Of a stretch of 64,000 nucleotides of DNA, positions 2,898 through 51,740 are shown in pieces (position 1 is the stretch's first letter; each line of letters opens with the position of its first letter). A program made the translations under genes and the position numbers. The notes beneath the pieces are model-generated. The model was not told where the DNA came from, did not search any database, and saw only the letters and a program-made list of their open reading frames with translations. The DNA is taken from positions 64,001 to 128,000 of the forward strand of contig CAVSCK010000004.1 in assembly GCA_963726455.1 (NCBI GenBank). The letters run 5' to 3'. Source of the DNA: an uncultured bacterium. GTDB lineage: Bacteria; Zixibacteria; MSB-5A5; CAIYYT01.

Positions 2898-4562
2898 ATG
2901 ACGTTGATAATGCGCATTAAGATGCTTCATGTTCTGGCGATCTGCTGTTTCGCCCTGATGCTGGCGGCCGACTCATTTGCTGCTCTCTCCCCGATCGAGC
3001 AGGATGTCAAGGCAGGCATAATCAGCGAAAACGACGCGGTTATCTATCGGGCATTGGCAATCGTGCGCCCTGAAGCCGTGCCGACGCGTTATCTCTCGGA
3101 AGTTACGGTACCGGGTAAGTGCGCGACTGACGAAGTGCGTGAAGCCACGAAGATTATCATGTCCGACTCGACGGCTTACAAATCCTTCAGAGATATCCTG
3201 TCGCGACCCGTTACTCAGGTCGCCTACCAATCACCACAAGGATATTTCTGGTTGCACTATGATACTTCCGGGACGCATGCCGTGCCGCTTGCAGATGGCA
3301 ACGGTAACGGCGTGCCGGATTATATAGACCACGCGGCCAGCTATGCTGATTCGGTCTGGAGATACGAGGTTCAGGACTTGGGGTTCTTGCCGCCGCCTGC
3401 GGACGGAACGCAGGGTGGTGGTTTGGATCAGTATGATATCTATTTCCAGCGACTCACGGTATATGGCTACACGCAGTTAGAATCGCCGGGGCCGAACCCG
3501 TGGTACGACTACTCATCTCACGTCGTCGTCCATAACAACTTCAACGGCTTTCCACCCAATCAGGATCCGGAAGGGAATGTATACGGCGCGCTGAAAGTCA
3601 CGATCGCCCACGAATTCTGCCATGCGCTGCAGTTTGCTTATGATGCCGGAGAAGAGATCTACTTCATGGAGGAGACTTCGACCTGGATGGAGGATATGGC
3701 TTTCCCGGCGACGAATGACAATTACAATTACCTGCCGTATTTCTACAGCGTTCCGGAGCAGGGATTGCAGAAGACAGGTAATCATGAATACGCCGCCTTT
3801 ATCTGGCCGAAGTATCTGCAGGAACGTTTCGGTCCGGCTATCATTCGCGAGATTTGGAGTGAGTGCCGTTACAATTCCGCGATCGGTTCCTGGTCGTATG
3901 TGCTGGACTCGGCGGGGAGTAGCTTGCAGGATGAATTCACGCGGTTTCTGGTGTGGAACTACCACACCGGTGATCGGGCGACGCCCACGACATTTGTGTC
4001 GGGTGCGGACTACCCGCAGGTAAGCGTGATGCGATACACCGACGTTGTTCCGGATTCGAATCGAAGTTCCAGCGAACCACCGGAACCGTTGGCATCCAAC
4101 TATATTGTCATTAACAATTACTCCGGTTCACGAGGTATCCTGACGATCGACTTCACCGGCGTGGTCACCGCCAACTGGGGAATCGGATACGTGATAGATC
4201 ATGGTAACGGACAATTCGAGGATTCAGTCTGTACTACACTGCAGGGAACGTCGGCGAGGATCTCGATCCCGCATTTCGAGAACGTGCTGAAGGTGGCGTT
4301 CATTCCGGGCGTGACATCATCCTACGGCACATCGTGGAACTATCAATACACCATCTTCTGGCGCACTCCCGGCGACTTCAACGGTGACAACGTAATCGAC
4401 ATCTCGGATGCCGTAGCCGGAATCAACTATATCTTCGGCGATGGCCCGGTTCCTCAGCCACTGCAGGCGATGGACGCGAACTGTGACGGATATAATGACA
4501 TCAGTGATGTCACATACTTGATCACCTACATCTTTGGAGGCGGTCCCGCGCCTTGCTATTGA
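2898..4562 (+). CDS. Secreted Zn-metalloprotease (MXAN_6640-like) with C-terminal dockerin
   Basis: Signal peptide; AHEFCHALQFAY (HExxH) plus EETSTWME; duplicated DxNxD..DISD dockerin repeats at the C-terminus. Confidence 0.85.
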   Translation: MTLIMRIKMLHVLAICCFALMLAADSFAALSPIEQDVKAGIISENDAVIYRALAIVRPEAVPTRYLSEVTVPGKCATDEVREATKIIMSDSTAYKSFRDILSRPVTQVAYQSPQGYFWLHYDTSGTHAVPLADGNGNGVPDYIDHAASYADSVWRYEVQDLGFLPPPADGTQGGGLDQYDIYFQRLTVYGYTQLESPGPNPWYDYSSHVVVHNNFNGFPPNQDPEGNVYGALKVTIAHEFCHALQFAYDAGEEIYFMEETSTWMEDMAFPATNDNYNYLPYFYSVPEQGLQKTGNHEYAAFIWPKYLQERFGPAIIREIWSECRYNSAIGSWSYVLDSAGSSLQDEFTRFLVWNYHTGDRATPTTFVSGADYPQVSVMRYTDVVPDSNRSSSEPPEPLASNYIVINNYSGSRGILTIDFTGVVTANWGIGYVIDHGNGQFEDSVCTTLQGTSARISIPHFENVLKVAFIPGVTSSYGTSWNYQYTIFWRTPGDFNGDNVIDISDAVAGINYIFGDGPVPQPLQAMDANCDGYNDISDVTYLITYIFGGGPAPCY

Positions 4563-4585
4563 AATAGGACACCATTCGGCACCTC

Positions 4586-6607
4586 ATGGAGGTCAATTTG
4601 CTCAGACGGATTATTGTAACGGCATGCCTGTTGTTCATCGCAACATCAGCGCTCGGGGCATCCAAGTCGTCATATCAGCTTATTCAACGGGCCTACAAAG
4701 ACGGCCTTCTCACCAACGAACAGAAGCTGCTGCTGGAAGTCCGTTCGGTCAAGAATCCGTCATCGCTGCCGCTGGCATATCAATCCACGGTCATCGAAAT
4801 TGCCAAGTGCGCGACGGACATTCTGCTCGAAGCGAAAAGCAATTTCAACGATCTCAGCGCCGCAGGCCAAACGGAGATGAGAAACATTCTGGCGCGCCCC
4901 TCAGCGACCAACGTTTTTGACAGTCCGGGAGGCAAGTTCAAGATTCATTATAACATCTCCGGCCCTAACGCAGTACCGCTGACAGATTCCGACGCCGATG
5001 GGATACCGGATTACATTGAATGGCTGGCCGGCTATGCTGATAGTTCATATCGCTCCGAGGTTCTGGGATTGGGACAATTTGAACCGCCCAGCGACGGTGT
5101 CGCCGGCGGCGACTCGCGGTATGACATCTACACCGAGGAAATGGGCTATTACGGCTACACGCAATCTGAAGGGGGCGGACCGAATCCCTGGAATGACGCC
5201 TATAGTTACATTTCGGTGCATCGCAATTTCCTGGGGTTTCCGCCCAACAACGATCCCGAGGGCAACCAAAAGGGCGCAGCCAAGGTTACGGTAGCCCACG
5301 AATATTACCATGCCGTTCAGTTTGCCTATAACTATATGGAGGAAGCCTGGCTGATGGAGGCATCTTCGACCTGGATGGAAGATTTCGTGTATCCCCAGGT
5401 GAACGACAATTACAACTATCTATCCAGTTGGTTTGGTTATCCGGACTACGCTTTGAATTCCACCACAAATTTGCATCAGTATGCTGCCTTTATCTGGCCG
5501 AAGTATCTGTCGCAGAATTTCGGGTCGGCGATCATGCCGGAACTTTGGAATCAGTGCATTTATTCGAACGCCTATCCGGCGCTGACCACGGTACTGGCAA
5601 ATCATGGGCGCGCGCTGAACAGCGAGTTTGCCGAGTTCTGTTCCTGGAATTTCATCACCGGTTCGCGCAATGACCACGAGCATTTTCTGGATGGGTCATA
5701 TTACCCGCTGATCTCGACAGTCCGGACACACACGACCTATCCGGTTACCGGGCAGGGACCGTTGACAGGCAAAGCTCCGGATGCGATGGGCGCCAACTAT
5801 GTCATCTTCACGCTGCCGGGCGGAACCGGCAATTTCACTGTCGACTTCAACGGTGATAATTCGACTCCTTGGATTGTCAATATCCTGGGTTGGAAGTCTT
5901 CGGGCGGCACCAACATTTACCAGGAGTTCCAGATGACGCTGAATGGCAGCGGCGATGGCTCATACACAGTTGTGAATCCGCAGGACTATACCTATATCGT
6001 CATGGTGATCTCTAACACGAGCCAGAGTCTTAATGATCGCGGCTATGTTTACGGAGCCAGTTTCGTCTCGGCGCCGCAATATGCCGTTGTGGTTAATGCG
6101 GTCGCCGACGATAGTCTTTATTCCCACACAAAGACACACTTAATCTACAACGTGCACAATACCGGCAGCAATGCCGAAACATTCACGCTCGCCGCCGCCG
6201 ACAGGCGCGGCTGGAGCATCCTGCCCTCGCGAAATCAGATTACGTTGACATCAGGCGCGACCGACACCGTTTCGGTCTCAGTCCCAGCGCCGGCGATGAC
6301 CAACGAAGGCGTCAAAGATACGGTAATGTTGACGGCGACATCGACATCAGCAACGGGGGTTTCGGACACTGACTCGGCGACGGCGTTGGTGTTTGTCCAG
6401 AACGGCGATGCCGACAACAGCGGCAGTCTCGATATTTCCGACGCCGTGTATCTGATCGGCTACATCTTCAACTCGGGTGCCGATCCGATGCCGGTGATGG
6501 ATGCCGGTGATGCAAATTGCGATGGTGCCGTGGATATCTCAGATGTCGTCTTCCTGATAGCATATATCTTCAATTCGGGACCACCACCACCCTGCAACCC
6601 TTTTTGA
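4586..6607 (+). CDS. Secreted Zn-metalloprotease paralog (MXAN_6640-like) with Ig/NEW3-like domain and C-terminal dockerin
   Basis: Signal peptide; AHEYYHAVQFAY, EASSTWME; VHNTGSNAETFTL Ig-like segment; dockerin GDADNSGSLDISD / GDANCDGAVDISD. Confidence 0.85.
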   Translation: MEVNLLRRIIVTACLLFIATSALGASKSSYQLIQRAYKDGLLTNEQKLLLEVRSVKNPSSLPLAYQSTVIEIAKCATDILLEAKSNFNDLSAAGQTEMRNILARPSATNVFDSPGGKFKIHYNISGPNAVPLTDSDADGIPDYIEWLAGYADSSYRSEVLGLGQFEPPSDGVAGGDSRYDIYTEEMGYYGYTQSEGGGPNPWNDAYSYISVHRNFLGFPPNNDPEGNQKGAAKVTVAHEYYHAVQFAYNYMEEAWLMEASSTWMEDFVYPQVNDNYNYLSSWFGYPDYALNSTTNLHQYAAFIWPKYLSQNFGSAIMPELWNQCIYSNAYPALTTVLANHGRALNSEFAEFCSWNFITGSRNDHEHFLDGSYYPLISTVRTHTTYPVTGQGPLTGKAPDAMGANYVIFTLPGGTGNFTVDFNGDNSTPWIVNILGWKSSGGTNIYQEFQMTLNGSGDGSYTVVNPQDYTYIVMVISNTSQSLNDRGYVYGASFVSAPQYAVVVNAVADDSLYSHTKTHLIYNVHNTGSNAETFTLAAADRRGWSILPSRNQITLTSGATDTVSVSVPAPAMTNEGVKDTVMLTATSTSATGVSDTDSATALVFVQNGDADNSGSLDISDAVYLIGYIFNSGADPMPVMDAGDANCDGAVDISDVVFLIAYIFNSGPPPPCNPF

Positions 6608-6772: not shown

Positions 6773-8611
6773 ATGGACCTAAAGCAGCTCGGTAAGTACG
6801 AAATCATTGATAAACTTGGTGAGGGGGGATTCGGCGCCGTCTATCTCGCCAATAATACGAGACTGAAGAAACGGGTGGCCTTGAAGGTGCTGCATCCGCA
6901 GGTAGCATCGGATGAAATGCTGGCCGCCTATTTCGAACGTGAAGCCCTGGCTCTGGCGCGCCTGGAGCATGCCAACATCGTGCGCGTTTATGACTACGAC
7001 CAGATCGACGGTGTCAGCTTCATCGTGATGGAGTTTATCGACGGCACGAATCTCGACAAGCTACTGCGCGATACCCGCAAGTTCTCGACCGAGGAAATTG
7101 TCTCGATGTTCCGGCAGTTGTTGTCGGCACTTGGGTATGCTCACGAGCATGGCGTGATTCATCGCGACGTCAAGCCGTCGAATATCATGCTGACGAACAA
7201 GGGCGAAGTCAAGATTACTGATTTCGGAATCGCCAAGGTTGCCGGGGGCGCTAAACTGACGCGCACCGGTACGGGAGCGGGATCGCTATTGTACATGTCG
7301 CCCGAGCAGATCAAAGGCGCCAACATTGACAACCGCAGTGATATCTACGCGACCGGTATCACTTTGTATCAGGTGGTCGCAGGGCGCACGCCGTTTGAGG
7401 CCGATTCCGATTATGAGATAATGACGGGCCATCTGGAAAAGCTGCCACCATCACCGTGTCAATTCAAGGGAGATATTCCGAAGGATCTTGAGCAGATCAT
7501 TCTCAAAGCGATCGAGAAGAAGCCGGAGAAGAGATACCAAGATGCGCAGGAAATGTCGGATGCGTTGGGAAACGTGAATCCAGCACCGACCAAAGTTCGC
7601 TCGGACGAATTTGCGCGGACAACCGCAATTCCGCGGCGTCCCAAAGCCGGCGCGTCGGGCAAGAAGATGCTAATTCCTGCACTGGCCCTATTGCTGGTTG
7701 TCGCCGTCGTCGCCGGCTGGCTCTTGACACGAGGGGGGAAAAAGGAGGAGGCAGTCAAGCCGACGCAGCAAACGTTCGCGGATTCGCTGACGACAGCGAA
7801 GACTCTCTTCAGTCAAAAGGATTTCTCCGGCGCCGCGTCTGTTCTTTCAGTGCTACAATTGTCGGCGAGCGCTGACCAAACGACGAAGGGCGATATCCTT
7901 CAGTATCTCGCAGCGTCGCGACTGATGTTGGGAGATTCGGTTGAGGCCAAAGCAATTTTCTCGGAATTAAGGCAATTGAATCCGTCGACTTCATTTTCGC
8001 CCGACAAGTTTGGTTCGGTGGCGGCAGAATCATGGAAGCGATTCGTCAGTCCCCCTTTAGTCGCGCAAAGCAACACGCAAACGATCAAGTCAAACGAAGG
8101 CGGCAGCCAGAAGCCGACTACCCAAAATGAAGGCACGACAACGCCTTCCGCCGGGAGTCTGTCGGTGACGGTGACTAACTGGAAAATCTTTGAACCGGTA
8201 GTGGTTATAATCGACGGGAAACGTGAGGATTATGCCGGCAATCCGCTGGTGTTTGCCAATGTTAGTGGTGGGACACATGAGGTAGGTATGGTTACCGATT
8301 TAGGGACGCTGACCGACCAGGTTCAGGTCGGGAGTGACAAAACGGAATATACATTCAATCCCAGCGATCATTTGACCAGCAAGCTGACGGTGACGTCGCT
8401 GGTGGCCAACGATCCCAACGATATCGTTTCCGCCCAGGTGTATATCGACAACGTCAAGATCGAGGACGGGCAGACGCCCTTCAATACCAGACTAATGAGC
8501 GGTCCGCACAAAGTCTGGGTTGACGACAAGAACTACCGTACCGATGGTAAACCGAAATTCGTGGATCTCGACAAGGACAAAGAGGTTGAATTCGTCCTCA
8601 GGAAAAGATGA
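6773..8611 (+). CDS. Hanks-type membrane Ser/Thr protein kinase with extracytoplasmic TPR-like and PEGA-like domains
   Basis: GEGGFGAV, VALK, HRDVKPSN, DFG, YMSPEQ; TM helix at about aa 300-318; AQVYIDNVK..GQTPF..GPHKV PEGA-like C-terminus. Confidence 0.95.
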   Translation: MDLKQLGKYEIIDKLGEGGFGAVYLANNTRLKKRVALKVLHPQVASDEMLAAYFEREALALARLEHANIVRVYDYDQIDGVSFIVMEFIDGTNLDKLLRDTRKFSTEEIVSMFRQLLSALGYAHEHGVIHRDVKPSNIMLTNKGEVKITDFGIAKVAGGAKLTRTGTGAGSLLYMSPEQIKGANIDNRSDIYATGITLYQVVAGRTPFEADSDYEIMTGHLEKLPPSPCQFKGDIPKDLEQIILKAIEKKPEKRYQDAQEMSDALGNVNPAPTKVRSDEFARTTAIPRRPKAGASGKKMLIPALALLLVVAVVAGWLLTRGGKKEEAVKPTQQTFADSLTTAKTLFSQKDFSGAASVLSVLQLSASADQTTKGDILQYLAASRLMLGDSVEAKAIFSELRQLNPSTSFSPDKFGSVAAESWKRFVSPPLVAQSNTQTIKSNEGGSQKPTTQNEGTTTPSAGSLSVTVTNWKIFEPVVVIIDGKREDYAGNPLVFANVSGGTHEVGMVTDLGTLTDQVQVGSDKTEYTFNPSDHLTSKLTVTSLVANDPNDIVSAQVYIDNVKIEDGQTPFNTRLMSGPHKVWVDDKNYRTDGKPKFVDLDKDKEVEFVLRKR

Positions 8612-8664
8612 AAAGATTTGCGGTCAAAATAGAATAATAGTAGCTTTACTTAAAGGAGTGGATT

Positions 8665-9672
8665 ATGAGAGCTATCATCATATCCTTGTTAGCGTGCCTG
8701 CTGCTGACGACATCGTTGTTGGCACAAGGCAATAGCGCTGATGAGATCAAAAACATCGGTGAACTTTATCGCCAGGGGAAATTTTCTGATGCCGTGATCA
8801 AAGCCACGGCGGTGCTGGCCAAGCCGGGACTCACGCAAAGTGACAGTCTGCAAACCATCCGCTGGCTGGCACGGGCGGCGGCACAGAATAATCAGGCCGA
8901 TCTGTCGCAACAGTATTTGGCGATACTGGTAAAGATGGATCCGAACACCGATTTCGATGGTGACAAGGAACCGGCTCGTTTTGCCAAGGTCTGGTTCAAG
9001 TTCATCGGCGACACCAAATACACTCCGGGTGAAAGACAGAGTAAGCTGGGCGTCGCTGTTGTTGAATTCGACAACGGTTCGTTTGAGGATGCGGACAAGG
9101 TGAAGAATGCCGGCATCGGTATAGCCGCCATGATTCGCTACGACCTGGAATCCTCCGGCGCAGTGTATTCGCCTTCGCGCGAGCATTTCAATTATCTGTT
9201 GGACGAACTGAAATTGTCGCAGACCGACATGGTTGACAAGGATCAGAAGGTGCAAGTTGGCAAGGTGATCGGCGCCAAGAATTTTATTTTCGGCACGTTC
9301 TTTAACATGCCGGGCAACAAGTTTCGTATTGACGCGCGCATAATCGAGACCGAGACCACTTTGCCCAAGCAGCAGTTTTCGGTGGAGGGCAAAGCGGGAG
9401 ATATCGGCAAGCTCACGGTAGAATTGACCAAGAAGATTCTGGCTTACTTCAATGTCCAGGCCGATGCCATCAAGAAGGCGGGCGCCAATATTCCGAACGT
9501 CAACCTGGCGGCGCTGATCGAATATTCGAAGGGTGTTGCTTACGAAGACAAGGGACAGATGGATCTGGCAAAGAAGGCGTATTCCGAAGCCATTAAGATA
9601 TCGCCAAGCTTCGCGCTGGCGTCTGATCGTCAGCAACGTGTCGAATTGGAGCAAAAGTCAAGCAACGAATGA
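8665..9672 (+). CDS. Exported TPR + CsgG/HfaB/TolB_N-like domain protein
   Basis: Signal peptide; VAVVEFDN...LLDELKLSQT...QVGKVIGAKNFIFGTF...IDARIIETET; C-terminal TPR. Confidence 0.8.
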   Translation: MRAIIISLLACLLLTTSLLAQGNSADEIKNIGELYRQGKFSDAVIKATAVLAKPGLTQSDSLQTIRWLARAAAQNNQADLSQQYLAILVKMDPNTDFDGDKEPARFAKVWFKFIGDTKYTPGERQSKLGVAVVEFDNGSFEDADKVKNAGIGIAAMIRYDLESSGAVYSPSREHFNYLLDELKLSQTDMVDKDQKVQVGKVIGAKNFIFGTFFNMPGNKFRIDARIIETETTLPKQQFSVEGKAGDIGKLTVELTKKILAYFNVQADAIKKAGANIPNVNLAALIEYSKGVAYEDKGQMDLAKKAYSEAIKISPSFALASDRQQRVELEQKSSNE

Positions 9673-11054
9673 TTGCTAAGGAACGGCAACATCATTTATC
9701 ACAGGACGAGATGAAACGCAGTTCTTCTCACGAGCGAGGTGTGTTCTGCGGATTTTCCGGGAAGCTGCCGGCCATGATCATCGCAGGTTTGTTCGCGATC
9801 GCGTTATTGGTGCAGACGGCGCCGGCGCAGAATGTCACTCCCGCCAAGAAGAGTGCGAGCGAACAGGCCATTGACAAGTACAAGGCGCAACTTGAGAAAT
9901 CGCCTAACAAGCCCGAACTCTGGCGGAAACTCGGCATCAGCTATTTTCAGGCCCAACGCAGCGACGAGGCGCTGACGGCTTTTGACAAGGCAAGCTCTCT
10001 GGACGCAAACGACGCGACCTCCGTTGTCTATCGTGGCATGATCAACGAGCAGAAGGGGAATCTGGATCAGGCGCTGAACTTGTATCGAAGTTACCTCGCT
10101 TTCAACAAACAGGATCGCCTGTCGCAGGAAATCAAGTACCGCGTGCGCTGGCTTGAAGACAACCAACTCAAGCAATTGGTCGATCAGGCGGTTGCCAACG
10201 AGAAGAAAGTTCAGATCGCCGACATTCCGAAGAACAGCATAGCGATAGTACGCTTCAACGTCGATTCCCTGTCATCACAACTCAGACCACTCGGGCGAGG
10301 ATTGGCGGAACTGATTTACACTGATCTTTCGTACGTCCCAGAACTCAAACTCGTCGAGCGTTTGGAACTGGCGCGCCTGCAACAGGAACTTGATCTCAAC
10401 CAGTCGCAGTTCTCAGACAAGCTTTACGCTCCCCGGCTAGGCAAGATAGTCGGCGCAGCCAAGATCGTTACCGGACAAGTGAGCGAATTGGATGCTGAAC
10501 GGATCGGTGTTGATTGCGGAATTGTCGATGTCGGCCCCGGGCTGTCGGAATATCCTGGCCGCCAGGAAGGCAAGATGGCCAGTATCTTCGCGATGGAGAA
10601 GAATCTGGCGCTATCGATTATCAAGACCCTTGGTTACGAAATCACACCGGCGATCAAGAACCAAATCGACAAATCGCCCACAGAATCATTCCTGGCGCTG
10701 CTGGCTTATTCGCGAGGACTGGATTACGCCGATCAGGGGCTCTATCCATTAGCGGCAGAAGAATTCAAAGCCGCGCTGGTAGATGATCCGGGTTTTGCCG
10801 CGGCGAAGCAGCAACTCAATCAGGTTTCGGGCCTGGCGAATTATAACGGTACTCTGAAACCAATCGCTCAGATAACGGGGCTCATGGATCAGAAGAATGC
10901 GACGGACGATCTCAAGGTGAACAACATGGCTGAGATCATCGGGCGTCTCCAGAATGTGACACGCGGGGTTATCCCTCCGGGGGATGTACCATACCTGACG
11001 CCGCAAGAATCCCGGGGCAGAGTGATAGTCACCGGAAGGACGGAACCCCAATGA
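9669..11054 (+). CDS. Exported TPR + CsgG/HfaB-like domain protein (true start may be later)
   Basis: ATGA overlap with previous gene; several TPRs; IAIVRF...LKLVERLELARLQQELDL...RLGKIVGAAKIVTG. Confidence 0.8.
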   Translation: MIAKERQHHLSQDEMKRSSSHERGVFCGFSGKLPAMIIAGLFAIALLVQTAPAQNVTPAKKSASEQAIDKYKAQLEKSPNKPELWRKLGISYFQAQRSDEALTAFDKASSLDANDATSVVYRGMINEQKGNLDQALNLYRSYLAFNKQDRLSQEIKYRVRWLEDNQLKQLVDQAVANEKKVQIADIPKNSIAIVRFNVDSLSSQLRPLGRGLAELIYTDLSYVPELKLVERLELARLQQELDLNQSQFSDKLYAPRLGKIVGAAKIVTGQVSELDAERIGVDCGIVDVGPGLSEYPGRQEGKMASIFAMEKNLALSIIKTLGYEITPAIKNQIDKSPTESFLALLAYSRGLDYADQGLYPLAAEEFKAALVDDPGFAAAKQQLNQVSGLANYNGTLKPIAQITGLMDQKNATDDLKVNNMAEIIGRLQNVTRGVIPPGDVPYLTPQESRGRVIVTGRTEPQ

Positions 11055-12208
11055 TGCGGTCACCGGCTGTCATACTCATGACCGTGGTCTTCGCATTGGC
11101 CGCGTTTGATGGTGCTTCAGCGCAGATCATCTACGGCACGCCTGCGAGTTTCAGTGATCAAATCATATATCAAAACTGGAAATTGACCGCCGGTTCCGGA
11201 GGAAAAGATACTACGGTCTCACAGATCGTGATGCCGTTGAGAGTCTATGTGCCGATTGCCCCGCACTGGGAAATGCACTTCAACGGCGCTGTCAGCAACT
11301 CGAAACTAAACAATGCACGGACTTCCACGAGTGTTTCATCTGCCGGCCTTTCGACGGTACAGGTTTATCGCGCTTTCGCGAAGGACCGCCTTTATGCAGC
11401 CGCCGGGTTGGTGCTTCCGACGGGAAAGACCGGGTACGATACGTTGCAGCTTCCCGTGGCGCAAATCATCGCCAATGACTATCTCAACATCCCGCTGAAG
11501 CAACTTGGCGGCGGATTCGGAATGACAATTCAGACCGGCGGTGCTACGCAATACAACTGGCTCCTGTATGGGGGCTCGGTCGGATACACATACACGGGCA
11601 GCTATACATATCTGTCCGGCGGTGACAAATATAATCCAGGTGATGAGATAGTTGTTCAGGGTTCGGCCACCGCCGTCGGCAGAGTAACCAGTCTCGATGT
11701 GGATGTGTCCTACAAATACTACACGGCCGACAAGGTCGGTTCGAATCAGATTTTCAAAGCCGGTGGTGTGGCCAGCGTGGTCATGACCGGCAGGTACGAT
11801 TTTGGTGTCGGCCGAGCCAGTCTGTCGTTAGCAGAAATAGTGCGCAGCAAGAACTCGCTACAATTTGGAAACGCGCTGCGAGCCGACAGCGCCAAGGCCA
11901 ACGGAAACAAGTCAATTGTGGCGGGTACCATCAGCTACGAGTTCGTACCGCAGTGGAGTTTTTCACTGCTGGCTGATTATCGCTTGCTGGCTGCCAACGG
12001 ATATCGCACGACGTCGGAGAAGTACTTCGGCAAGTCGGATTTGTTCAGTTTCGGCGGCGGCTTGGAATACCACGACGCGAGCGACCGATTCTCATTGACG
12101 GGCAAAGCGGTCTACAGCACCGGTGAGGCGAACAAGGACAATGTTAACAGCAGCAGTATCTCGATCTCTGGCTTCGAATTTTCGGTGGGAGGCAGGGTAC
12201 GACTGTGA
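11051..12208 (+). CDS. Putative outer-membrane beta-barrel protein
   Basis: Signal peptide; alternating amphipathic Tyr/Gly-rich strands; ends FSVGGRVRL. Confidence 0.7.
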   Translation: MMRSPAVILMTVVFALAAFDGASAQIIYGTPASFSDQIIYQNWKLTAGSGGKDTTVSQIVMPLRVYVPIAPHWEMHFNGAVSNSKLNNARTSTSVSSAGLSTVQVYRAFAKDRLYAAAGLVLPTGKTGYDTLQLPVAQIIANDYLNIPLKQLGGGFGMTIQTGGATQYNWLLYGGSVGYTYTGSYTYLSGGDKYNPGDEIVVQGSATAVGRVTSLDVDVSYKYYTADKVGSNQIFKAGGVASVVMTGRYDFGVGRASLSLAEIVRSKNSLQFGNALRADSAKANGNKSIVAGTISYEFVPQWSFSLLADYRLLAANGYRTTSEKYFGKSDLFSFGGGLEYHDASDRFSLTGKAVYSTGEANKDNVNSSSISISGFEFSVGGRVRL

Positions 12209-13017
12209 GTCGAATCGCGAAATTCATAGGTCTGTCAGCAATTGCGGCGATCATCGTTGTCGGTGGCTGCGCCACGAAACCGGTCGCACCTGCAAATGGC
12301 CAGCAGGTCGCGATTTCAACGTCCCTGAAGCAACTTGGAGTCGGCAGCGAAGTCTCGCGCGTGTCTCTGACGGTCAGGGGAAGTGATTTTCCAAGCGCCA
12401 GCCAGGATTTGACTCTGACAAACGGCGCGGTGCGCGCCGAAATTGATGTGCCGTTTGGAACGAACAGGATATTCGAACTGACCGCTTATGACGGCGAGAC
12501 CGTGCTTTACTTCGGGGCGGACACGGCTGATGTCAGTGCCGGAGTGGTGACGGAAGTTTTCGTCTACCTGCGGCCACAAGTTCCGATGATCAAGATCAGC
12601 CCTTTATACAGCAGCAGAAACAATCCCGGACTCAATGGTACTTTCAATGTCGAAGTTCACAATATTGACTCCCTGTTTGGCATTTCGTTCCGGCTGGAGG
12701 TCGATACTTCGATTATCCAGTTCACCAGTGCCGAGGCGGGCGATTTCCTTGGCAGCGCCGAGAACACCTTATTCTTCGTGCAGACATACCCGCAGTACCT
12801 TGCCGTTGGCTATACGCTCAGAGGCAATCGCGAACCACAAGGAGTGAGCGGATCGGGCACGGTGGCCAATGTGTTTTATAATGCCAGAAGAGTTGGGAGG
12901 ACCGCCGTGACGATCAATCCCGCCTACTTGAGGTTGATTGATTGGCAGGGCAACCCGCTGCCGCGCCAGGGCCGGATATATATCGAGAGTGGGGAGGTGG
13001 AAGTCCTTGCGCAATAA
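12205..13017 (+). CDS. Lipoprotein with C-terminal cohesin-like domain
   Basis: Lipobox VVGG-C; FNVEVHNIDSLFGISFRLEVDTSIIQFTSAEAGDFLG...GVSGSGTVANVFY matches the cohesin pattern. Confidence 0.75.
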   Translation: MSRIAKFIGLSAIAAIIVVGGCATKPVAPANGQQVAISTSLKQLGVGSEVSRVSLTVRGSDFPSASQDLTLTNGAVRAEIDVPFGTNRIFELTAYDGETVLYFGADTADVSAGVVTEVFVYLRPQVPMIKISPLYSSRNNPGLNGTFNVEVHNIDSLFGISFRLEVDTSIIQFTSAEAGDFLGSAENTLFFVQTYPQYLAVGYTLRGNREPQGVSGSGTVANVFYNARRVGRTAVTINPAYLRLIDWQGNPLPRQGRIYIESGEVEVLAQ

Positions 13018-16000
13018 TTGGAGATTAACAGGACTGCTGTTTTTGTGTCTTGCCGTGTCGAGTGTACCGGTTGCACAGGGGAGGATCTTCTGGGTCGCCA
13101 ACGGTGGCTCCAATACCAACCCGGGTACTGAGCTACTCCCTCTAGCGACAATCAGTCACGCGGTATCAACCATTTCTCCGGGCGGCGGAATCGACACTGT
13201 GACGGTGAAGCCGGGACTATATTCTGATTCGGTAACGTTTGGCACACTTGCAGTAGTACTGATGAGCTCCAAAGGTGCCAAGGAGACAGTGATCAACGGC
13301 GCAAATCATAACGTTCCGGTTGTCTTCAATGCCGGTACACCGACGTCAACATCGTTGAACGGCTTCACGGTCAGAGGTGGAAAGGTGTCGGGCATCGCAG
13401 TGGTTGGCACTTTCTTTCCAGCCACGAATGGCACAACCCCGTCATCGCCCGAAATCAAGAATTGCATCATTCGCCGGAACGGTGGCAAATCGGCCTTCAA
13501 CGGCGCCGGAATATCACTGCGCTATTCGCAGGCCAGTTTGCACAACAATCTGATTGATTCCAACTATTCCATGAACAATGGCGCCGGAATCCATTCTTAC
13601 TATAGCGCACCGAAAATCTGGAGCAATCGTATCGAAAATAATGCCGTCACCAGCGAAGGCGGAGGCGGCGGAATGTATATCGTTGGGTTGATCGATACCC
13701 TGGCGAAGACGTTGATTCAGAACAATCTGTTCATTCGAAACCGCGCGGTCAATTACGGCGGAGGAATAGCAGTTAATGCCGACAGCGTATATTTCCTCAA
13801 CAATCTGGTGTATGGCAATTCCATCACAACCCCCAGTTACAGCGGCGGGATTCAGATCGACTATAGCACGATAGTGCTCCGCAACAATATCATAGCGGGT
13901 AACAACCCCTATGGCGTCGAATGTTATGGCGGCCCCATTTTTGAAAACAACAGCTTCTACGGCAATCTTCCGGCTGACCAACTGTCGATAATGTGTTATC
14001 TCGACAACACCAACCGTATCGGGATCAACCCAACGTTCGTCGATACTCTAGCAGGGGATTTTCACCTTAAGCAGACTTCGCCTTTGATTCACGCCGGATC
14101 GCCGAAAATTACAGAGGGAGTGAATGTTGATTTCGATGGTTTTCCGCGAGCAACGGCGGGGCAGATTGATATTGGACCTTACGAACAAACGATATGTGAT
14201 ATGATACCCGGCTTCTCGGCGCCGGCTTCAGCTTGTACCGGCCAGAAGGTAACACTGGGGAACACGTCTGCCGGTCACTATACCATGGCGATCTGGGATT
14301 TTGGCAACTCTGTCGTTGATACATTTATGAATGTCGATCCAACCCAACCGCCGATTTCGCCTACCATCGTATACCCGACTCCGGGCGACTACGCTCTTAA
14401 GCTCAAGCTCATCTGTCCCTATGACACTGCTGTCACGCTGGCAAGGACAATTGCGATTGTCAACAAACCGGTACCGGGATTCACCGTCGACACAAGTCAG
14501 GGATGTTCGCCATTGACAGTGCAGTTCATCAACACTACCACCGGTCTGGAGCACACCGATACCTGGTACTTCGGCGATGGCATGACATCAACAGAAGTTA
14601 ACCCGTTACACATTTATGCCGAGGCGGGGATATTCACTGCGAAACTCGTGTCAGCAAATACCTGCGGTATAGATTCAGTCCAGCATACCATTACTGTTCA
14701 AACGGGATCGCGAGCGACAATTGCCGCTGATATCACGCGCGGCAGCCCGGTCCTGACAGTTACGTTCACCGGCAGTGCGACCAACAGCCCGACCGGATGG
14801 CTGTGGAATTTCGGAGACGGAGGCACGGCGACGACGCAGGTTGCCTCTCACAACTATCAGGATGCAGGTATCTTTGACGTTAGCCTGGCGGCAACAAACG
14901 CCTGTGGGACGGGAACTCCGGAAGTGCGCACCGGCTTGATAACGGTGTATGGATTTATCCTGAATCAGGCATCTTTCGACACCACCAACCGTTTCCAGCA
15001 GAAATTCACGGCGAAAATTGACTCATTGTATGGCTTCTTCAACCGCAATATCAATTTCACGGCGACGACCTCGCCGCCACCGACTCGGGGATCGATTGGT
15101 GTGACACTTAATCGCACTACCGCCAGTTTGCTGGACAGCGTCACTGCGACCGTCAGTCTGAGCCGTGATGTTCCCTCATCATCTTTCTACACCCTGCGGC
15201 TGATTGGACAGTCGGTGTCCAACCGTCCCGTTGATACGCTTTTCTGGCGATTCAACTCACACCCCGACACGTTGATCAAACTGTCGGCAGGAGCTATTGT
15301 TTTCGACTCAGTTCAGGTCGATACCTTTGCGATCGATTCTGTCAAGATCACCAATACATCGGGAATCCAGAATCCGTTGAATCTCCGGGTGCTGGACGTT
15401 ACCAGCAGTGATCCCGTTTTTGTGCCGCTTGATACAGTTTCGGGAATCCTGCAGCCGAATGCGACGTTCTATGTCCACGTAAAATTTAGACCGTCGGCGG
15501 TCGGAGACAAATCGGGATTCCTGACGATTACCTCCGACGATCCGGCTCTGCCGAGTTTACTAGTGACGCTAAATGGGAAGGCAATACCCGAGCGTAAGCC
15601 ACCTTTGGTGTTGGCGACAGTGCCGGAGAGCAACGCGAATGCTGCTTTGATCGGAACGCCAATCGAGTTCGATATGTCGGATCAGATGGACCCGACCTCC
15701 GTCGTATCCGGCTCCGTGGTTGTGCATTCACGCCATGTAAACGCCGACCTGCTCGGTTCCGTGCGGTTGACGGGACAAACCAGAATTATATTCGTACCGC
15801 AACAGCGATTCCCCGGCTACGACACAATCAGTGTCAGACTGCTGGGCACTGTCCGGGACCTGGCAGGAAATACTCTTGATGCCAACGGTGACGGCAGGGG
15901 AGACGGTTCGCCGGCGGACGATTACATTTTCTCGTTCTTTACCGGACCGGCAGTTTTCCCGGGTGACTGCAACAATGACGGCGCTGTGAATGAAATGGAC

Positions 16001-18936: not shown

Positions 18937-20214
18937 TCAAAACTCAAGAATTGTGGAAAGTGCAAACTGGCCGCCGTTACCACCCCATGGCACCAGTCTC
19001 GATGCCGACGCATAAGCCAGGTCAAGCTTGATTGGTCCCAGACCAAGTCCGATTCCGACGCTCGCCGACTTGTCGTCGATTCCACCGACCGCCAGACCGG
19101 TACGCAGTGCCGCGAACCCGAGTGCCAGGTACTCGACGCCACAAGCCAGTCGCGGAGTTTTCGAGGCGAAGGCAGATTCTTCAAAGCCCTGTTTCAGACT
19201 AGCCGCCGCCAACAGTTTGCCGAAGCTGCGCGAAGCGCCAAATTGGATTTCCATCGGTGGACGAGTATGTATGGAGCCCACCGCAACCTTGTGGTCTTCC
19301 GAAGTCCACACCGTGTCGTCACCGGAGTTTTCAACCGTGACGTTTTCGAAGTCAAATGTATAGACCGTCTTTTCCAAATCGCGATTCCAGTTCAGTGAGG
19401 CCAGGAGATTTTTAAAGACCAGTCCATACTGGGCGTGCTCGCCCATGGCTACGAGTCCGAAATCCACGGCATATCCGCGACCACCAAGTGACTGCAGAGT
19501 TGTCATGCCGCCATTTCCGGAAAATCCGGTTGTCAGTGTAATGGCCTGAGCAGTCAAGCCCTCAACTGAGTAGTAAGCCAGTCCGTGCAAGTATTTGACC
19601 GTGGCACCGGCAGCAATGTCCCAATGGCTGGTCGTTGCCACCCTGGTTCCGTAACTGATACCGACTGCCAGAGCGCTCCAGCCCCTGCCGTCACTACCTT
19701 CGGCAGTGACTGTTTCCCCCATCTTATTGCCCATCAAAGCCAGTTCGATTGGATCCTTGGGCAATGTCCCTTTTCCGCCACCGATAACTTCCGCCGTCAG
19801 CGCCATCGAAGACGCCGCAAAAGATAGGGCACTGACGTTTCCTCGGAAATTGACGTCCAATCCGCCGGCGGGAATCTTGTCGAGGATTGTCTGCTTGTCG
19901 GCGGTTGTCAGATAAGCGCCGTTGTACTTGTTGTAGTCAGCCAAACTAAAGGCGTTGTTGGCAACGAGTCCGGAGACTGAAACCAATTTCAGCGATGGGC
20001 GCCTGCTGCCGGGCATGGCCAGATTGGCTGGATTAGCTGTCGCTGCCTCGCAGTTGGATGACTCGAGCAGGTAGCTCCCCGCCATACCCAGCGAGCGTGC
20101 ACTCGGGGCTGATTGCGCTAGCAGCAATCCGGGCAGGATCAGCAATGCGACTGCCACGATCAGTGACAAGGCGATTACGCCTGCGAATTTCCGTTGCTTC
20201 GTTTTGTTTTCCAT
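18937..20214 (-). CDS. Outer-membrane beta-barrel (TraF_2/DUF5723/FadL-like)
   Basis: ARSLGMAGS, ANPANLA motifs; amphipathic strands; terminal Phe. Confidence 0.7.
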   Translation of the reverse strand: MENKTKQRKFAGVIALSLIVAVALLILPGLLLAQSAPSARSLGMAGSYLLESSNCEAATANPANLAMPGSRRPSLKLVSVSGLVANNAFSLADYNKYNGAYLTTADKQTILDKIPAGGLDVNFRGNVSALSFAASSMALTAEVIGGGKGTLPKDPIELALMGNKMGETVTAEGSDGRGWSALAVGISYGTRVATTSHWDIAAGATVKYLHGLAYYSVEGLTAQAITLTTGFSGNGGMTTLQSLGGRGYAVDFGLVAMGEHAQYGLVFKNLLASLNWNRDLEKTVYTFDFENVTVENSGDDTVWTSEDHKVAVGSIHTRPPMEIQFGASRSFGKLLAAASLKQGFEESAFASKTPRLACGVEYLALGFAALRTGLAVGGIDDKSASVGIGLGLGPIKLDLAYASASRLVPWGGNGGQFALSTILEF

Positions 20215-42829: not shown

Positions 42830-43780
42830 ATGCGAACATTCTTAACGTTCGTGACGGTGTTCGTCACCGCACTGTTCTTCTTTCCCAGTGTCTCCGTTTT
42901 CGGGGCGGACCACGACCGCGATGGCATTGACGATGCCGTCGACAACTGCATCGTCATCCCCAATCCGGATCAGACTGACAGCAACGCCGACGGTGTCGGC
43001 GATGCGTGTGATTACTCGGCTCCCAACAGAGGCGATGTTCACATCAGCTTCAACGGGGGTGCCGACAAGCTCTACATTGGTGAAGACAACATTATGGAAA
43101 TCTGGATTGCTAACGGCGCTCCCGTTTGGGGAATGTCAATCGGCTTCTCCTTTGCCACTCCTGATAGTTTCCACTTTGTATCACCGTATGGCAATGCCCC
43201 TTCGACGGGAAAGCGTTGTGCACAGCTTTACGGCAAAGTACTCGAAAGCCTTTGCTTCACCGATTATGGATGCAGGTTTCAGGTTTCCAGAACCGCTGGT
43301 TGGGATAGCATTCTCTTGGGTGGGGCAGCGCAAGATTTTCCTATGGCAGCAGCTCCCGGGCACGAACTGGCGATCAAAATGAAAATATTCGTGCCGCCAC
43401 TTCAAAATGAGCTACCCGGAGGATTTTGCGTTGATAATATTTTCTATCCGCCTGCCGGTCCCTGGAAATTCGACTCAGGCAGCGGCAATACTTACCCGCC
43501 CGATTTCCAGGGCAATCCTAACACGAGCGTTCAGAATCCCGATGCTCCGCCGGTATGCTTCGACCTTGTACTTCCTGATTATATACCCGGTGATGCAAAC
43601 GCGGACGGCTCGGTCGACATCAGCGATAATATCTATTTGATCGCCTATATCTTTGGCGATGGTTTCGCACCAAATCCGCCCATGTCCGGCGATGCGAACT
43701 GCGACGGCGTTGTTGACATTTCCGATCCAATCTTTCTGATCGCTTATATCTTTGATAACGGTCCGGCGCCGTGCCAATAG
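42830..43780 (+). CDS. Secreted protein: TSP3 repeats, cohesin-like beta-sandwich, dockerin
   Basis: [32 protein letters not shown]; EIWIAN...WGMSIGF; [14 protein letters not shown] / [13 protein letters not shown]. Confidence 0.8.
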
Positions 43781-43810: not shown

Positions 43811-44753
43811 ATGTACCGGTTGGTAATGACATTCTTGTTGGCAGCGGCGCTTACAGTGGTAATGCCTGCGGCTATTGCACTGGCCTATGGCGGCCCAGGC
43901 GATCACGACGGCGACGGAATTCCCGACGCCCAGGATAATTGCGTCGTCATCCCCAATTCCGACCAGGCCGACAGCAACGGCGATGGTGTCGGCGATGCGT
44001 GTGATTACTCTGCGCCGAACAGAGGCGATGTTCACATCAGCTTCAACGGCGGAGTCGACAAAGTCTTTATCGGTCGGGACAATATCATGGAAATCTGGAT
44101 TGCCAATGACCAGCCGCTTCTTGGTATGACGCTCGCCATGGCATTCACTTCGGCATCCGGATCCTTCAGTTGGGTCACGCCCTACGGAAACAAACCTCCG
44201 AGTTCACCGAAATACGTGCAAGAGCACGGAGACGCCTTTAACGCATTCGATCTGGGCCTGCTCGCCTTCACAGCGACAAATCTTCCGACTTCATGGAGAA
44301 TGGGGGGAGCGGCGCTGGATCATCCATTGCCTGCGCATATCGGTCACTCTCTTTGCTACACGCTCAAATTGCGAATACCTGCGGATCAAGTGCTTTCTGC
44401 TGGTGGTTTCTGCGTCGACAACATCTTCTTCCCGCCTGCAGGCAACTGGAAATTTGACCCGGGTGGTGGCAATATGTACGCACCGGATTTTCAGGGTAAT
44501 CCTAACACAAGTACGACCAATCCCGGATGCGCCGAATGTTTGTTTCGACATCATCGTTGCCGGAGACGCCAACGGTGATAACGTGGTCGACATCTCTGAC
44601 GCGGTATACCTGCTCGCTTACATATTCAACAGCGGACCCGCACCCAATCCGGTCGGCGCTGGCGACACCAACTGCGATGGAGAAATTAACATTTCCGACG
44701 CCGTTCATTTGATTGCCTACATCTTCAGCGGCGGCTCGGTGCCCTGTCCGTGA
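43811..44753 (+). CDS. Tandem paralog: TSP3, cohesin-like domain, dockerin (apparent frameshift near 44525)
   Basis: Same architecture as 42830; dockerin is in the 44403-44753 frame. Confidence 0.8.
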
Positions 44754-46892: not shown

Positions 46893-47768
46893 GTGTTGAC
46901 GAATCGCCATTCTCGGATAAGCACGTTTCTCCTGGTCGTCTTGGCGTTGTCTGCGCTGCCGGCTGAGTCATCACCGATAAACGTCAGGATTCCCTCCTAC
47001 TTCGGTGTTAATCCGGGCGACACTCTGGCGCTCTCCATCACCATGCAATCGCCCATGCCGCTCGGTGGCATTGACTTCACCTTTCATTTCGACGATAGCA
47101 TCTTCCGCCCGGTCAGCGTCCAGCAGGACACCGGCCTCAAGCATTGGGAATGGTTCATCAATCAATATGATTCTGTCGACGCCACCGTGCGCGTGACCGC
47201 AATTGCCGATTTACCCAACGGTCAGCATCCGAATCCCAGCGATTTCTATCCGAAGGGCTCGATCGCCATCATTCGCTTTCTCGTTTCGCCAAGCTGGACA
47301 CCGGATTCGTCTAAAATCCCCTTCACTTTTTACTGGCCGACCTGTGCCGACAACGCTGGTTCGAACATGCTCGGAGATTCACTCTTGGTCATCCGCCGAC
47401 TTCTTGATTCCGATGGCGCGCTGCTTTGGGACGAAACCGACAATTATAATTTTCCCGAGAATACCCGTCCCCCTCATATCGGCGTAGTCGATAGTTGCCA
47501 ACAGATTTCGGCCGGACTGCTATATCAACTCGACTTCCAAAACGGCTCAGTCGCCAATTACGCCCTCTGTGGCAACGTAGACGGTGATCAGTCCCTCGAT
47601 ATTTCAGACGCCGTCTATCTGATCTCGTACATATTTGCCTCGGGGCCGCCGCCGCAGCCACTGCTGTCGGGTGACGTTGACTGCACCGGATCAGTCGATA
47701 TTTCCGATGTCGTCCTGATAATCACCTACATCTTTGGCGGTGGTTCGCCACCTTGTAGCTGCCAATAA
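46893..47768 (+). CDS. Secreted cohesin-like + dockerin protein
   Basis: GGAGG + GTG; PGDTLALSITM....LGGIDFTFHFDDSIF..VSV...GSIAIIRFLV; CGNVDGDQSLDISD / GDVDCTGSVDISD. Confidence 0.78.
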   Translation: MLTNRHSRISTFLLVVLALSALPAESSPINVRIPSYFGVNPGDTLALSITMQSPMPLGGIDFTFHFDDSIFRPVSVQQDTGLKHWEWFINQYDSVDATVRVTAIADLPNGQHPNPSDFYPKGSIAIIRFLVSPSWTPDSSKIPFTFYWPTCADNAGSNMLGDSLLVIRRLLDSDGALLWDETDNYNFPENTRPPHIGVVDSCQQISAGLLYQLDFQNGSVANYALCGNVDGDQSLDISDAVYLISYIFASGPPPQPLLSGDVDCTGSVDISDVVLIITYIFGGGSPPCSCQ

Positions 47769-49853: not shown

Positions 49854-49931
49854 TCTAGCCCCTTGTGGGCGATTCAACGCGGGTCTTCATCAGTTATTGG
49901 TGATCTGTAACTCAGACTGCCCTGGATTAAG

Positions 49932-51740
49932 CTATTCAAATCGGCCGGGCGTCGCCCCGCCGGCAAAGAAATATTGGATCAGGAAGGCAAGGTCCGAGAT
50001 GTCAACAGAATCATCAGAATTCGCATCACCGACCAACTCGTAAGGGAATGGCGCCGGGCCGCCATTGAAGATGTAGTCCACCAAATAGACGGCATCGGAA
50101 ATATCTATTGAATTACTCGCATCGCAATCCGCTTTCATCTTTCCCGCAAATCCGTTTATGGTGTTGTTCTTTATCGACCTCGTGCCCCGATAGGACTGCG
50201 TATACGTCAGTTCGTTATCGCGAATGTAATTCCAAAACTCGTGGAAGGTGCTGTCACGATGTGACTGGATGCCCCAGGTATAGACTGTCTCGAAGCTTAC
50301 AGGATAGTCCGAATTTTCGTCTTCGCCATCGTTGTCGGTGTCCCAAAGGTCAAGAAGAGCGCCGGCAACTCGTCCGGAGACAGCCGGACCTTGCGCGAAA
50401 TTCGAGCTTTGATGGTACTCAACATCGAAATGAAATCCATTTAGGTCGTAGTCCATTTGACCGTCGGGCGTAACCACTAAGGCGAAGAAATTGGCCCATC
50501 CCTCTCGCCACGCAACTCCTTCACAGGAACCCACATTTATGGGTTGCTCATTACAGCCCCCGGGCAGCACGTGAGAATATGCATGTACCATCATTGCATG
50601 CCCATACTCGTGATTTACAATGTCGATTGAGCAAGCATGATCTCTCATAATGTTGATCGTACCGGTCGCAATACCGGTTTCAGTTGCGGTTGCGGGCCAG
50701 ATGCATTGTACGAACTCGGGATGCGGTCCTACTTCTTCTGCGACCTCCCAGCCGAGGTTCATGTACTGAAAGCACCACATGGCCCCCTCATTGTAAGGTT
50801 CTCCGCCGTAGATGTAATGCGTCCCGAAGTCGACGACCGAATTGTCAGTTACGTCCCTAGTAATCTGAGAAAACCATTTATAGGGACTACTAGTCGGAGT
50901 TTGCTTGACCGACCACGAACTGTTCTCAGTTACGAATACCAAGTAGGGATCGGCGGTCCCGTCTTCGTCGGAATTGTCCAACCAGTTCATCGTGAAACAT
51001 CCGTACCAATCGGTAGTAGTGGTGCCGAGCCATGTATCGGCCCCTGGCGGATTGTCGTATTCGTTATCGTTCCAGATTTCAACATCACAGTTGACCGCTT
51101 CTCTAAACCATCCTTCCGCGTCACGAGCATCATGGTACAGCAAGATGCCTGTGATATCAAATGTCCCTGCACGTCTTCCTTGCCCACCGGTCTTATGTTG
51201 AAGACTATCGGGAATGTTCGGCAAAGCGCGCTTGCCGGAGTGTTTCTGAGGCACGAGGACAGGGTTCTTCGGCGGCTGCGGCAATTTCAATAGGGTGGGA
51301 ACTGTACGTTGGTATTCTAAGTCCGTCAATGCTCGACAAACTGAATCACTGACCTGGATATAGAACGACGTATGGCTCGTCGCCCGAGGATTGTCCCCCC
51401 AGCCGCCTGCGGCCTCTACTTTAACCTCCCAGATGCCGCGAGACGTCGCACGAATTATCCCTTTGAATGTCACCGCCGCGGTGTCCGGGAGACCGTAGGT
51501 TTCCTGTGGTTGGCTGACAACTTCAAACCCGCTGTCAGGCACGATTCTCGCTGTCACGTTCGTAATCTGCTTTGGCCAACATGATGCGCTAATCAACACG
51601 GTGGAATTTATCCCCAGACCTACTGTGTCGACACTCGACACAGTCACTTCAAGCGGGGCTGGACTTCTCAAGACCTCCTCCGCATGTGACACTGTCGCGA
51701 GCCAAAAGAAGATCATCAACGTTGCACCTATTTTACTCAT
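49932..51740 (-). CDS. Secreted Zn-metalloprotease with C-terminal dockerin
   Basis: Signal peptide; HEYGH plus AWREGWANF; ADCDASNSIDISD / GDANSDDSVDISD. Confidence 0.8.
   Translation of the reverse strand: MSKIGATLMIFFWLATVSHAEEVLRSPAPLEVTVSSVDTVGLGINSTVLISASCWPKQITNVTARIVPDSGFEVVSQPQETYGLPDTAAVTFKGIIRATSRGIWEVKVEAAGGWGDNPRATSHTSFYIQVSDSVCRALTDLEYQRTVPTLLKLPQPPKNPVLVPQKHSGKRALPNIPDSLQHKTGGQGRRAGTFDITGILLYHDARDAEGWFREAVNCDVEIWNDNEYDNPPGADTWLGTTTTDWYGCFTMNWLDNSDEDGTADPYLVFVTENSSWSVKQTPTSSPYKWFSQITRDVTDNSVVDFGTHYIYGGEPYNEGAMWCFQYMNLGWEVAEEVGPHPEFVQCIWPATATETGIATGTINIMRDHACSIDIVNHEYGHAMMVHAYSHVLPGGCNEQPINVGSCEGVAWREGWANFFALVVTPDGQMDYDLNGFHFDVEYHQSSNFAQGPAVSGRVAGALLDLWDTDNDGEDENSDYPVSFETVYTWGIQSHRDSTFHEFWNYIRDNELTYTQSYRGTRSIKNNTINGFAGKMKADCDASNSIDISDAVYLVDYIFNGGPAPFPYELVGDANSDDSVDISDLAFLIQYFFAGGATPGRFE

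Follow-up and report, generated by a model that had tools for sequence, protein, structure and literature searches.

The 64,000-nucleotide stretch analysed here—hereafter the window, positions 64,001 to 128,000 of contig CAVSCK010000004.1 from an uncultured bacterium of the Zixibacteria—encodes eight secreted proteins with dockerin repeats and a lipoprotein with a cohesin-like domain, which proteins an initial annotation had assigned to a single outer-membrane-anchored scaffold. We found that about 140 Sec-exported proteins of this genome end in one uniform, two-fold symmetric dockerin, which we call class A, in place of the C-terminal tail of the type IX secretion system (T9SS); that only 7 of those carriers lie in the window; and that the lipoprotein travels with another dockerin, class C. 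The window was thus rejected as a self-contained complex, and its eight proteins together with the lipoprotein could not be maintained as one scaffold. With 7 class-A carriers against the 2.5 expected in 64 kb from the genome average (Poisson P 0.014, a significance inflated by tandem pairs), the window is a mildly enriched slice of a genome-wide system and no dedicated island. The explanation that we favor, with moderate confidence, is that of a phylum-wide, non-cellulosomal surface display that employs at least two separate cohesin–dockerin codes and is hung on T9SS anchors.

The class-A dockerin, the T9SS tail, and the cargo

An iterated profile detected dockerins in 142 open reading frames (ORFs) of the genome, in 136 of which the domain lies no more than 10 residues from the stop; with Pfam, 141 dockerin matches were recorded in the 3.64-Mb genome, 150 candidates having been scored. 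The possibility that these were chance EF-hand-like matches was rejected, since the dockerin and cohesin profiles produced 0 matches on the genome's reversed ORFs. Class A was defined by aligning the 130 terminal copies with the strongest matches, among which—by the usual dockerin numbering—position 10 is isoleucine in 117/129 of the first repeats and 120/129 of the second, position 11 is serine in 111/129 of each, and D12 is invariant in both repeats of the 130 copies. Identical recognition residues in both repeats are typical of dual-binding dockerins. All the PDB matches of class A (16/16) were to dockerin-bearing chains, and cysteines are so frequent in the second loop (93/130) and at the end (122/130) that a disulfide is plausible.

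In a survey of 121 genomes of the phylum, each at least 90% complete, class A was present in 118; the dockerins noticed initially at one locus therefore belong to a system that is both genome-wide and phylum-wide. The class-A code varies between families, as judged from one to four examples of each. In the present genome the class-A ORFs take up 7% of the sequence, and a crude hydrophobicity scan recognized a signal-peptide-like start in 84 of 100 long class-A ORFs versus 373 of 877 in the background. One secreted carrier (L002:3296-4870, minus strand) bears five tandem class-A dockerins behind a small cupredoxin-like head that has a T9SS-tailed paralogue, for which protein a function as a cross-linker of cohesins is possible.

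The T9SS-type C-terminal domain, for its part, was found on 54 ORFs, none of which is also among the 133 strong class-A ORFs. Moreover, for 32 of the 138 class-A heads a paralogue with a T9SS tail was found at E ≤ 1e-15, in some instances over nearly the full length (56% over 413 amino acids); the window proteases are among those heads (approximately 30% over 365–425 amino acids), and the T9SS-tailed M6 protease of the window (17182) has a paralogue elsewhere in the genome, 38% identical over 418 amino acids, that ends in a class-A dockerin. Core components of the T9SS were detected—SprA, PorU (720 bits against a cut-off of 420), and the PorV family—with the curated cut-offs passed (TIGR04189, NF033707, and NF033709 above theirs). 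No GspD-type secretin was detected above cut-off: of the two secretin matches in the genome, one belongs to the PilQ type and misses the GspD cut-off, and the second adjoins a TadA-like ATPase. Directly downstream of PorU (L217:6627-9857, minus strand), a PorV-family barrel ends a 1,076-amino-acid open frame, which arrangement may be a fusion or a frameshift.

The cargo was scanned in 132 carriers located outside the window; the scaffoldin described below and two ORFs of very short length were excluded. Pfam recognized peptidases in 25 of the 132 (eight S8, four M1, two C25, two M14, and one each of C1, C10, C11, C39, M4, M6, M12, M23, and M43) and propeller-repeat proteins in some 27 more, with 56 having no family at E 1e-6, of which 48 were still blank upon re-scanning at E 0.002. 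Since peptidases make up only about one-fifth of the cargo, the protein scavenging proposed initially can be part of the picture at most. In contrast, the statement that no glycoside hydrolase could be recognized holds as far as Pfam sees, no such family having appeared among those 132 carriers plus the 8 inside the window with the blanks re-scanned to E 0.002; one BNR_2 and four beta-helix carriers could nevertheless hide glycan-active enzymes. The dockerin-bearing glycoside hydrolases for plant-wall polysaccharide that characterize a cellulosome are accordingly absent among the scanned carriers, so that the system is no cellulosome by cargo, but probably works like one. A class-A protein with weak multihaem cytochrome c matches (L168:13643-14782, plus strand) suggests that redox proteins may be displayed too.

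Cohesin families and candidate sockets for class A

Iterated profiles yielded 23 family-P and 11 family-F cohesin-like domains in the genome in addition to those of the lipoprotein and of a scaffoldin, with three per protein being the maximum found. The scaffoldin belongs to a three-gene cluster outside the window (L001), recognizable in six other genomes, whose T9SS-tailed products combine internal dockerins with two or three cohesin-like domains each. Thus a non-catalytic multi-cohesin scaffoldin, as in cellulosomes, does exist outside the window, although with 759 amino acids and three cohesin-like domains this protein is far shorter than the clostridial ones. In its structural model (predicted local distance difference test, pLDDT, 88.6) two domains, at residues 30-198 and 311-462, resemble cohesins with Z 17.5 and a root-mean-square deviation (rmsd) of 1.8–2.0 over 135–137 aligned residues, and the third does so by sequence alone. 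Homologues of the scaffoldin and of the lipoprotein are assigned to Zixibacteria at NCBI, one of them at 59%; three others, at 37–41% more distant, bear different organism names. We treat the genome as Zixibacteria-type. Directly downstream of the cluster (L001:413-6510, minus strand) lies the gene of a giant protein, broken into several frames, in which a lectin-like head is joined to Ig-like repeats that are nearly identical.

The family-F profile matched the PDB at E 1.6e-6, and 30/30 of its matches were cohesin-bearing, mostly over the first 60 positions; 4 of the 11 family-F proteins end in class A. As to family P, HHalign related it at 90% to the first domain of the scaffoldin, which has the cohesin fold, and at 78% to family F, and an Atlas lead places PF00963 on 13% of its members, which results support the assignment of family P to the cohesins only weakly and indirectly.

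To which of these cohesins class A might bind was considered from their distribution. Family P was found in 20/20 of the class-A genomes examined—the 15 that lack a match to the second scaffoldin cohesin plus five further—and in 0/5 genomes without class A, in four of which latter T9SS tails were strongly matched; furthermore, the genome richest in class-A candidates (312) is also the richest in family-P matches (55). The second cohesin of the scaffoldin, which we had favored initially for its conservation, occurs in 103 of the 121 phylum genomes and is absent from all three that lack class A; the scaffoldin is in single copy in 102 of those 103, this domain is its best-conserved cohesin, and its near-invariant residues fall on the strands assigned to the binding face, an assignment made from secondary structure and analogy with solved cohesins rather than from coordinates. 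We downgraded this candidate because that face is constant across families while the class-A code varies, and because the domain went unmatched in 15 class-A genomes; from this we infer that the domain serves a conserved internal dockerin. Family-P-type cohesins may thus be likelier sockets for class A than is cohesin 2, albeit uncertainly so, and the anchors of class A are likely to be T9SS-tailed cohesin proteins outside the window.

Under the explanation that we favor, class-A proteins would clip in a calcium-dependent manner onto the cohesins of T9SS-tailed proteins, which PorU would attach to the surface. The most likely sockets would be the family-P cohesins, including those of single-cohesin anchors and the first domain of the three-gene scaffoldin cluster; proteins with both a cohesin and a dockerin (42830, 43811, and 46893 of the window) would extend or branch the assembly; and the peptidases, propellers, and binding repeats so displayed may bind and digest protein-rich material.

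The window and its candidate lipoprotein/class-C pair

The relevant features of the window are the following (positions are those of the window):

2898-4562 (+), secreted HExxH putative metalloprotease (NF045524, DUF6055) with a C-terminal class-A dockerin at 4365-4559
4586-6607 (+), HExxH putative metalloprotease (NF045524) paralogous to 2898, with an Ig-like domain and a class-A dockerin at 6398-6601
6773-12208 (+), conserved operon upstream of the lipoprotein gene: kinase, two TPR/CsgG, and probable barrel
6773-8611 (+), Ser/Thr kinase gene
8665-9672 and 9669-11054 (+), two TPR/CsgG-domain genes
11051-12208 (+), probable outer-membrane barrel gene, judged by sequence pattern
12205-13017 (+), lipoprotein with lipobox Cys22, an N-terminal beta-sandwich, and a C-terminal cohesin at residues 126-270 (about 12580-13014)
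13007-16630 (+), beta-helix/PKD/Ig surface protein with an internal class-C dockerin within 15941-16213 and a C-terminal T9SS type A sorting domain at about 16355-16627 (TIGR04183 above cut-off)
17182-18936 (-), M6 metalloprotease with a T9SS tail (TIGR04183) and no dockerin
33025-35147 (+), LVIVD-repeat propeller protein with a class-A dockerin at 34941-35138 and two frameshifts near 33410-33500
42830-43780 (+), TSP3 repeat, family-P cohesin-like domain at 43022-43537, and class-A dockerin at 43583-43777
43811-44753 (+), tandem paralogue of 42830: TSP3, family-P cohesin-like domain at 44015-44521, and class-A dockerin at 44556-44750
46893-47768 (+), family-F cohesin at 46971-47555 and class-A dockerin at 47565-47762, with no further domain
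49932-51740 (-), secreted protein with an HExxH motif and a class-A dockerin at 49938-50138

All eight of the proteins to which duplicated calcium-loop/helix dockerins had been ascribed do carry them, and the start codons named for them exist. PF00404 matched above cut-off in ORFs 2898, 13007, 33486, and 42830 and slightly below (22.0–22.6 versus 22.9 bits) in 4586, 46893, and 49932; the dockerin of 43811 matched only in the genome-wide six-frame search, the gene being frameshifted near 44530 so that this domain sits in another frame. Nevertheless, the eight are not of one kind: seven are C-terminal and class A, and that of 13007 is internal and class C. The HExxH motif is present in all three of the proteins designated as metalloproteases, though NF045524 applies to 2898 and 4586 only, while 49932 has the motif alone, its head giving no match in Pfam, NCBIfam, or the PDB, nor any peptidase family. 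The cohesin-like domains proposed for the lipoprotein and for 46893 are likewise supported, and those of 42830 and 43811, which belong to family P, more weakly and indirectly so.

By sequence the lipoprotein resembled cohesins poorly, with an HHalign match to the scaffoldin at 25% and PDB cohesin matches only at E 0.13–0.8, so that the fold search settled the question. Its AlphaFold model (pLDDT 83.9) comprises a beta-sandwich plus a cohesin; ranks 1–20 among 48,161 chains were all cohesins (Z 18.3, rmsd 1.9, 136 aligned residues), with the first non-cohesin at Z 10.3. Thus the lipoprotein, like the first two scaffoldin domains, adopts the cohesin fold, as the initial annotation had presumed, and its lipobox Cys22 is invariant in 12/12 orthologues.

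The class-C dockerin of the adjacent 13007, with a long insert and a distinct motif, is present in single copy in the genome. In seven of eight loci of relatives the lipoprotein gene lies directly 5' of a class-C, T9SS-tailed gene, the remaining locus (G035) having no class C; in two genomes (G028 and G037) this adjacency is kept despite an inverted kinase operon and a replaced passenger head. The kinase, the two TPR/CsgG genes, and the barrel are all linked to the lipoprotein in seven of the eight loci as well, the remaining one being cut off inside the kinase by a contig edge; the operon is conserved together with the lipoprotein in several families. In the phylum, class C occurs in 47/121 genomes and a match to the lipoprotein family in 74/121; the two lie no more than 7 kb apart in 36 of the 47 class-C genomes, and the strong full-length lipoprotein matches, 26 in number, are all in class-C genomes and linked in 24, counts that include related genomes and thus are not independent. 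In a further genome (G031), in which neither class A nor family P, family F, or cohesin 2 was found, a 171-amino-acid cohesin-only lipoprotein directly follows a protease that carries class C and a T9SS tail and shares 34% identity with 2898 across 363 amino acids. Since the pair persists through rearrangement, passenger exchange, and loss of the other components, we consider it the best-supported cohesin–dockerin pair, which persistence at the same time argues against a single scaffold. The lipoprotein is therefore, as far as sequence and linkage indicate, probably the dedicated partner of the class-C dockerin and not an anchor for the proteases.

As a private socket for that dockerin, to which it is demonstrably linked and presumably binds, the lipoprotein would tether the T9SS substrate 13007 beside the kinase/TPR-CsgG/barrel operon, and this operon could be a trans-envelope signalling module. 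The barrel gene had no match in Pfam or NCBIfam, its Atlas neighbours being hypothetical proteins of Gemmatimonadota and Zixibacteria with PF13557 on 11% of one cluster. A partial second copy of the operon, with a paralogous lipoprotein, is located at L212:6572-10679.

Alternative readings and known systems

Several observations weigh against a surface display on T9SS anchors with family P as the socket. The PDB matches of family P are weak, the top three being cohesins at E 0.06–0.09 and 6 of the 12 being chance ribosomal ones; the family varies widely (mean column identity 23%), in contrast to the uniform class A; and a T9SS tail is found on only 5 of the 23 family-P proteins, with 10 of the 23 themselves ending in class A. 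The five genomes without class A fall in two families, perhaps representing two losses, and hence provide little independent evidence, and 15 class-A genomes give no match to scaffoldin cohesin 2. One protein has a FlgD-type domain followed by a class-A dockerin, an exception to the exchange of tails; the display does not by itself account for the passage of class-A proteins across the outer membrane; and recognizable peptidases are only 25/132 of the cargoes, with 48 having no Pfam family at E 0.002. As regards the lipoprotein pair, six of the 47 class-C genomes have the lipoprotein unlinked and five have no lipoprotein match, while 32 genomes have a match to the lipoprotein family and no class C, many in the N-terminal domain only.

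The alternative that survives best, though we give it a rather low probability, is that the system is mainly structural: the cohesin-plus-dockerin proteins would polymerize into a calcium-dependent surface lattice or matrix in which enzymes were minor passengers. The class-A endings on 10/23 family-P and 4/11 family-F proteins, the protein with five class-A dockerins, the roughly 27 propeller-repeat cargoes along with the 56 of 132 without a family at E 1e-6, the single-copy scaffoldin with its conserved second cohesin, and the sheer share of the genome devoted to class A would all accord with such a lattice; the 25 peptidases, of twelve Pfam family types, among the 132 cargoes and the exchange of tails on enzymes would not. 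This structural reading is compatible with the display on T9SS anchors rather than exclusive of it.

A comparably small likelihood attaches to an extension of the display, namely that class A serves as an indirect export address, with the lipoprotein/class-C pair as an orthogonal device at the kinase module. The approximately 140 untailed proteins would attach in the periplasm to a cohesin carrier with a T9SS tail, the complex would ride through SprA, and the cargo would stay displayed on the carrier, so that one small set of adaptors might export and anchor 7% of the genome's coding DNA; the orthogonal pair would tether a surface sensor to the trans-envelope kinase module. The exchanged tails, the presence of the T9SS core, and the lack of a GspD above cut-off at either secretin locus are compatible with this proposal.

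Less probable still is that class A is a stand-alone sorting or calcium-binding tag for a non-cohesin receptor or an export machine, with the cohesins serving internal dockerins only. The strict C-terminal position, the uniformity, and the exchange with the T9SS tail would be just as expected of a sorting signal; the class-A code varies from family to family, unlike the conserved face of scaffoldin cohesin 2; and no GspD-type secretin passed the cut-off. What disfavors such a tag is the co-occurrence of class A with family P (20/20 genomes versus 0/5, with one genome leading in both), as well as the identity of the recognition residues in both repeats, as in dual-binding dockerins. Finally, that the lipoprotein 12205 anchors all eight dockerin proteins at the outer membrane is very improbable: despite its being a true cohesin with a conserved lipobox, and despite the orthologues of the 2898/4586 proteases beside the operon in four of the eight relatives' loci (with those of 2898 adjoining the kinase gene), it was not found in 47/121 genomes, with class A present in almost every one of these, it is kept with class C in G031, which has no class A, and a single monovalent socket would face some 140 plugs.

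Compared with clostridial cellulosomes and single-cohesin anchors (PDB 1ohz, 2vn5, 4uyp, 5nrk, 3ul4 of OlpA, and 4dh2 of OlpC), the display on T9SS anchors shares the cohesin fold, the duplicated calcium-loop dockerin, the symmetric recognition residues, and the coexistence of separate specificity classes in one genome; the clostridial systems differ in being monoderm, in their glycoside-hydrolase cargo, and in their long tandem-cohesin scaffoldins. Clostridial cellulosomes are anchored by S-layer homology domains or sortase. The cohesins of Clostridium perfringens (2jh2, 2w1n, and 2vo8) and Archaeoglobus fulgidus (2xdh), from a non-cellulose context, have similar folds (Z 14.6–17.0), but they number a handful of modules per genome and, unlike the situation here, come with no genome-scale tag that is exchanged with a secretion signal.

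As a general idea the system has precedents in print for two other phyla. For Ca. Stygibacter (Cloacimonadota) a cellulosome-like structure was inferred, by prediction only (Williams et al., 2021, PMC8542988); as set out in the pertinent sections of that paper, it has in common with the present genome a diderm envelope, signal-peptide enzymes with C-terminal dockerins—S8 and C25 peptidases included—and a cohesin scaffold with a C-terminal sorting domain, though there with one 3,755-amino-acid scaffoldin with carbohydrate-binding modules and few cargoes, GH18 and GH57 among them. Here, in contrast, the cargoes number about 140, with no glycoside hydrolase found; the genome has several small families of cohesins and several classes of dockerins as well as a predicted lipoprotein socket; and the system is present throughout the phylum. 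The 'planctosome' of the freshwater Nemodlikiaceae (Planctomycetes) was postulated as a hypothetical polypeptide-degrading cohesin–dockerin complex (Andrei et al., 2019, PMC6461901), of which the M12B and M14 peptidases, the TSP3 repeats, and a cohesin-plus-dockerin adaptor recur here; the passages devoted to it describe one anchor and one adaptor, the former being a lamin-tail-domain protein versus the T9SS tails or the lipoprotein here. Dockerin-type proteins are described in a giant-gene preprint (10.1101/2023.11.21.568195), which in its relevant sections does not mention Zixibacteria, and 'dockerin' is absent from the main text of the RBG-1 genome paper (PMC3903129). We found no literature that links Zixibacteria with dockerin, cohesin, or type IX secretion in a search outside whose reach most subscription papers lie. 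The phylum-wide variant is real and undescribed, and it is made testable by how large it is, by class A trading places with the T9SS tail, and by the distinct lipoprotein/class-C pair, the last being what this locus itself contributes.

If the display on T9SS anchors is correct, a whole uncultured phylum would organize much of its secretome by cohesin–dockerin docking and not by covalent T9SS anchoring, on a scale comparable with the largest cellulosomes, though directed at proteins and at ligands not yet known, and the question is raised by what route proteins that bear the tag and no T9SS signal get across the outer membrane. The planctosome and Ca. Stygibacter proposals are, in the sections that present them, predictions without assigned cohesin–dockerin pairs; the lipoprotein cohesin and the class-C dockerin form a candidate pair that is small and coupled in the genome, and for which class A provides an internal control of specificity. 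Designed enzyme scaffolds would profit from new orthogonal cohesin–dockerin pairs.

The other genes of the window provided some minor observations. A truncated gene at 51949-52686 (minus strand) is a tandem paralogue of 49932 in its N-terminal part, with no continuation in the frames read, and two secreted GWxTD-domain proteins stand in tandem at 53992-56816 (plus strand). Within 18937-22187 (minus strand), a DUF5723 or weak PorV-PorQ-family barrel is directly upstream of the M6 protease, and upstream of that barrel is a probable lipoprotein split across two ORFs. Further frame breaks affect an OmpA-domain gene (30856-32143) and the ribosomal protein S1 gene (58732-60055, split into ORFs 58732/59312), and the frame of a Yip1 gene (32222-32813) seems to break off; since the S1 gene is split as well as 33025 and 43811, indel errors in the assembly are likely.

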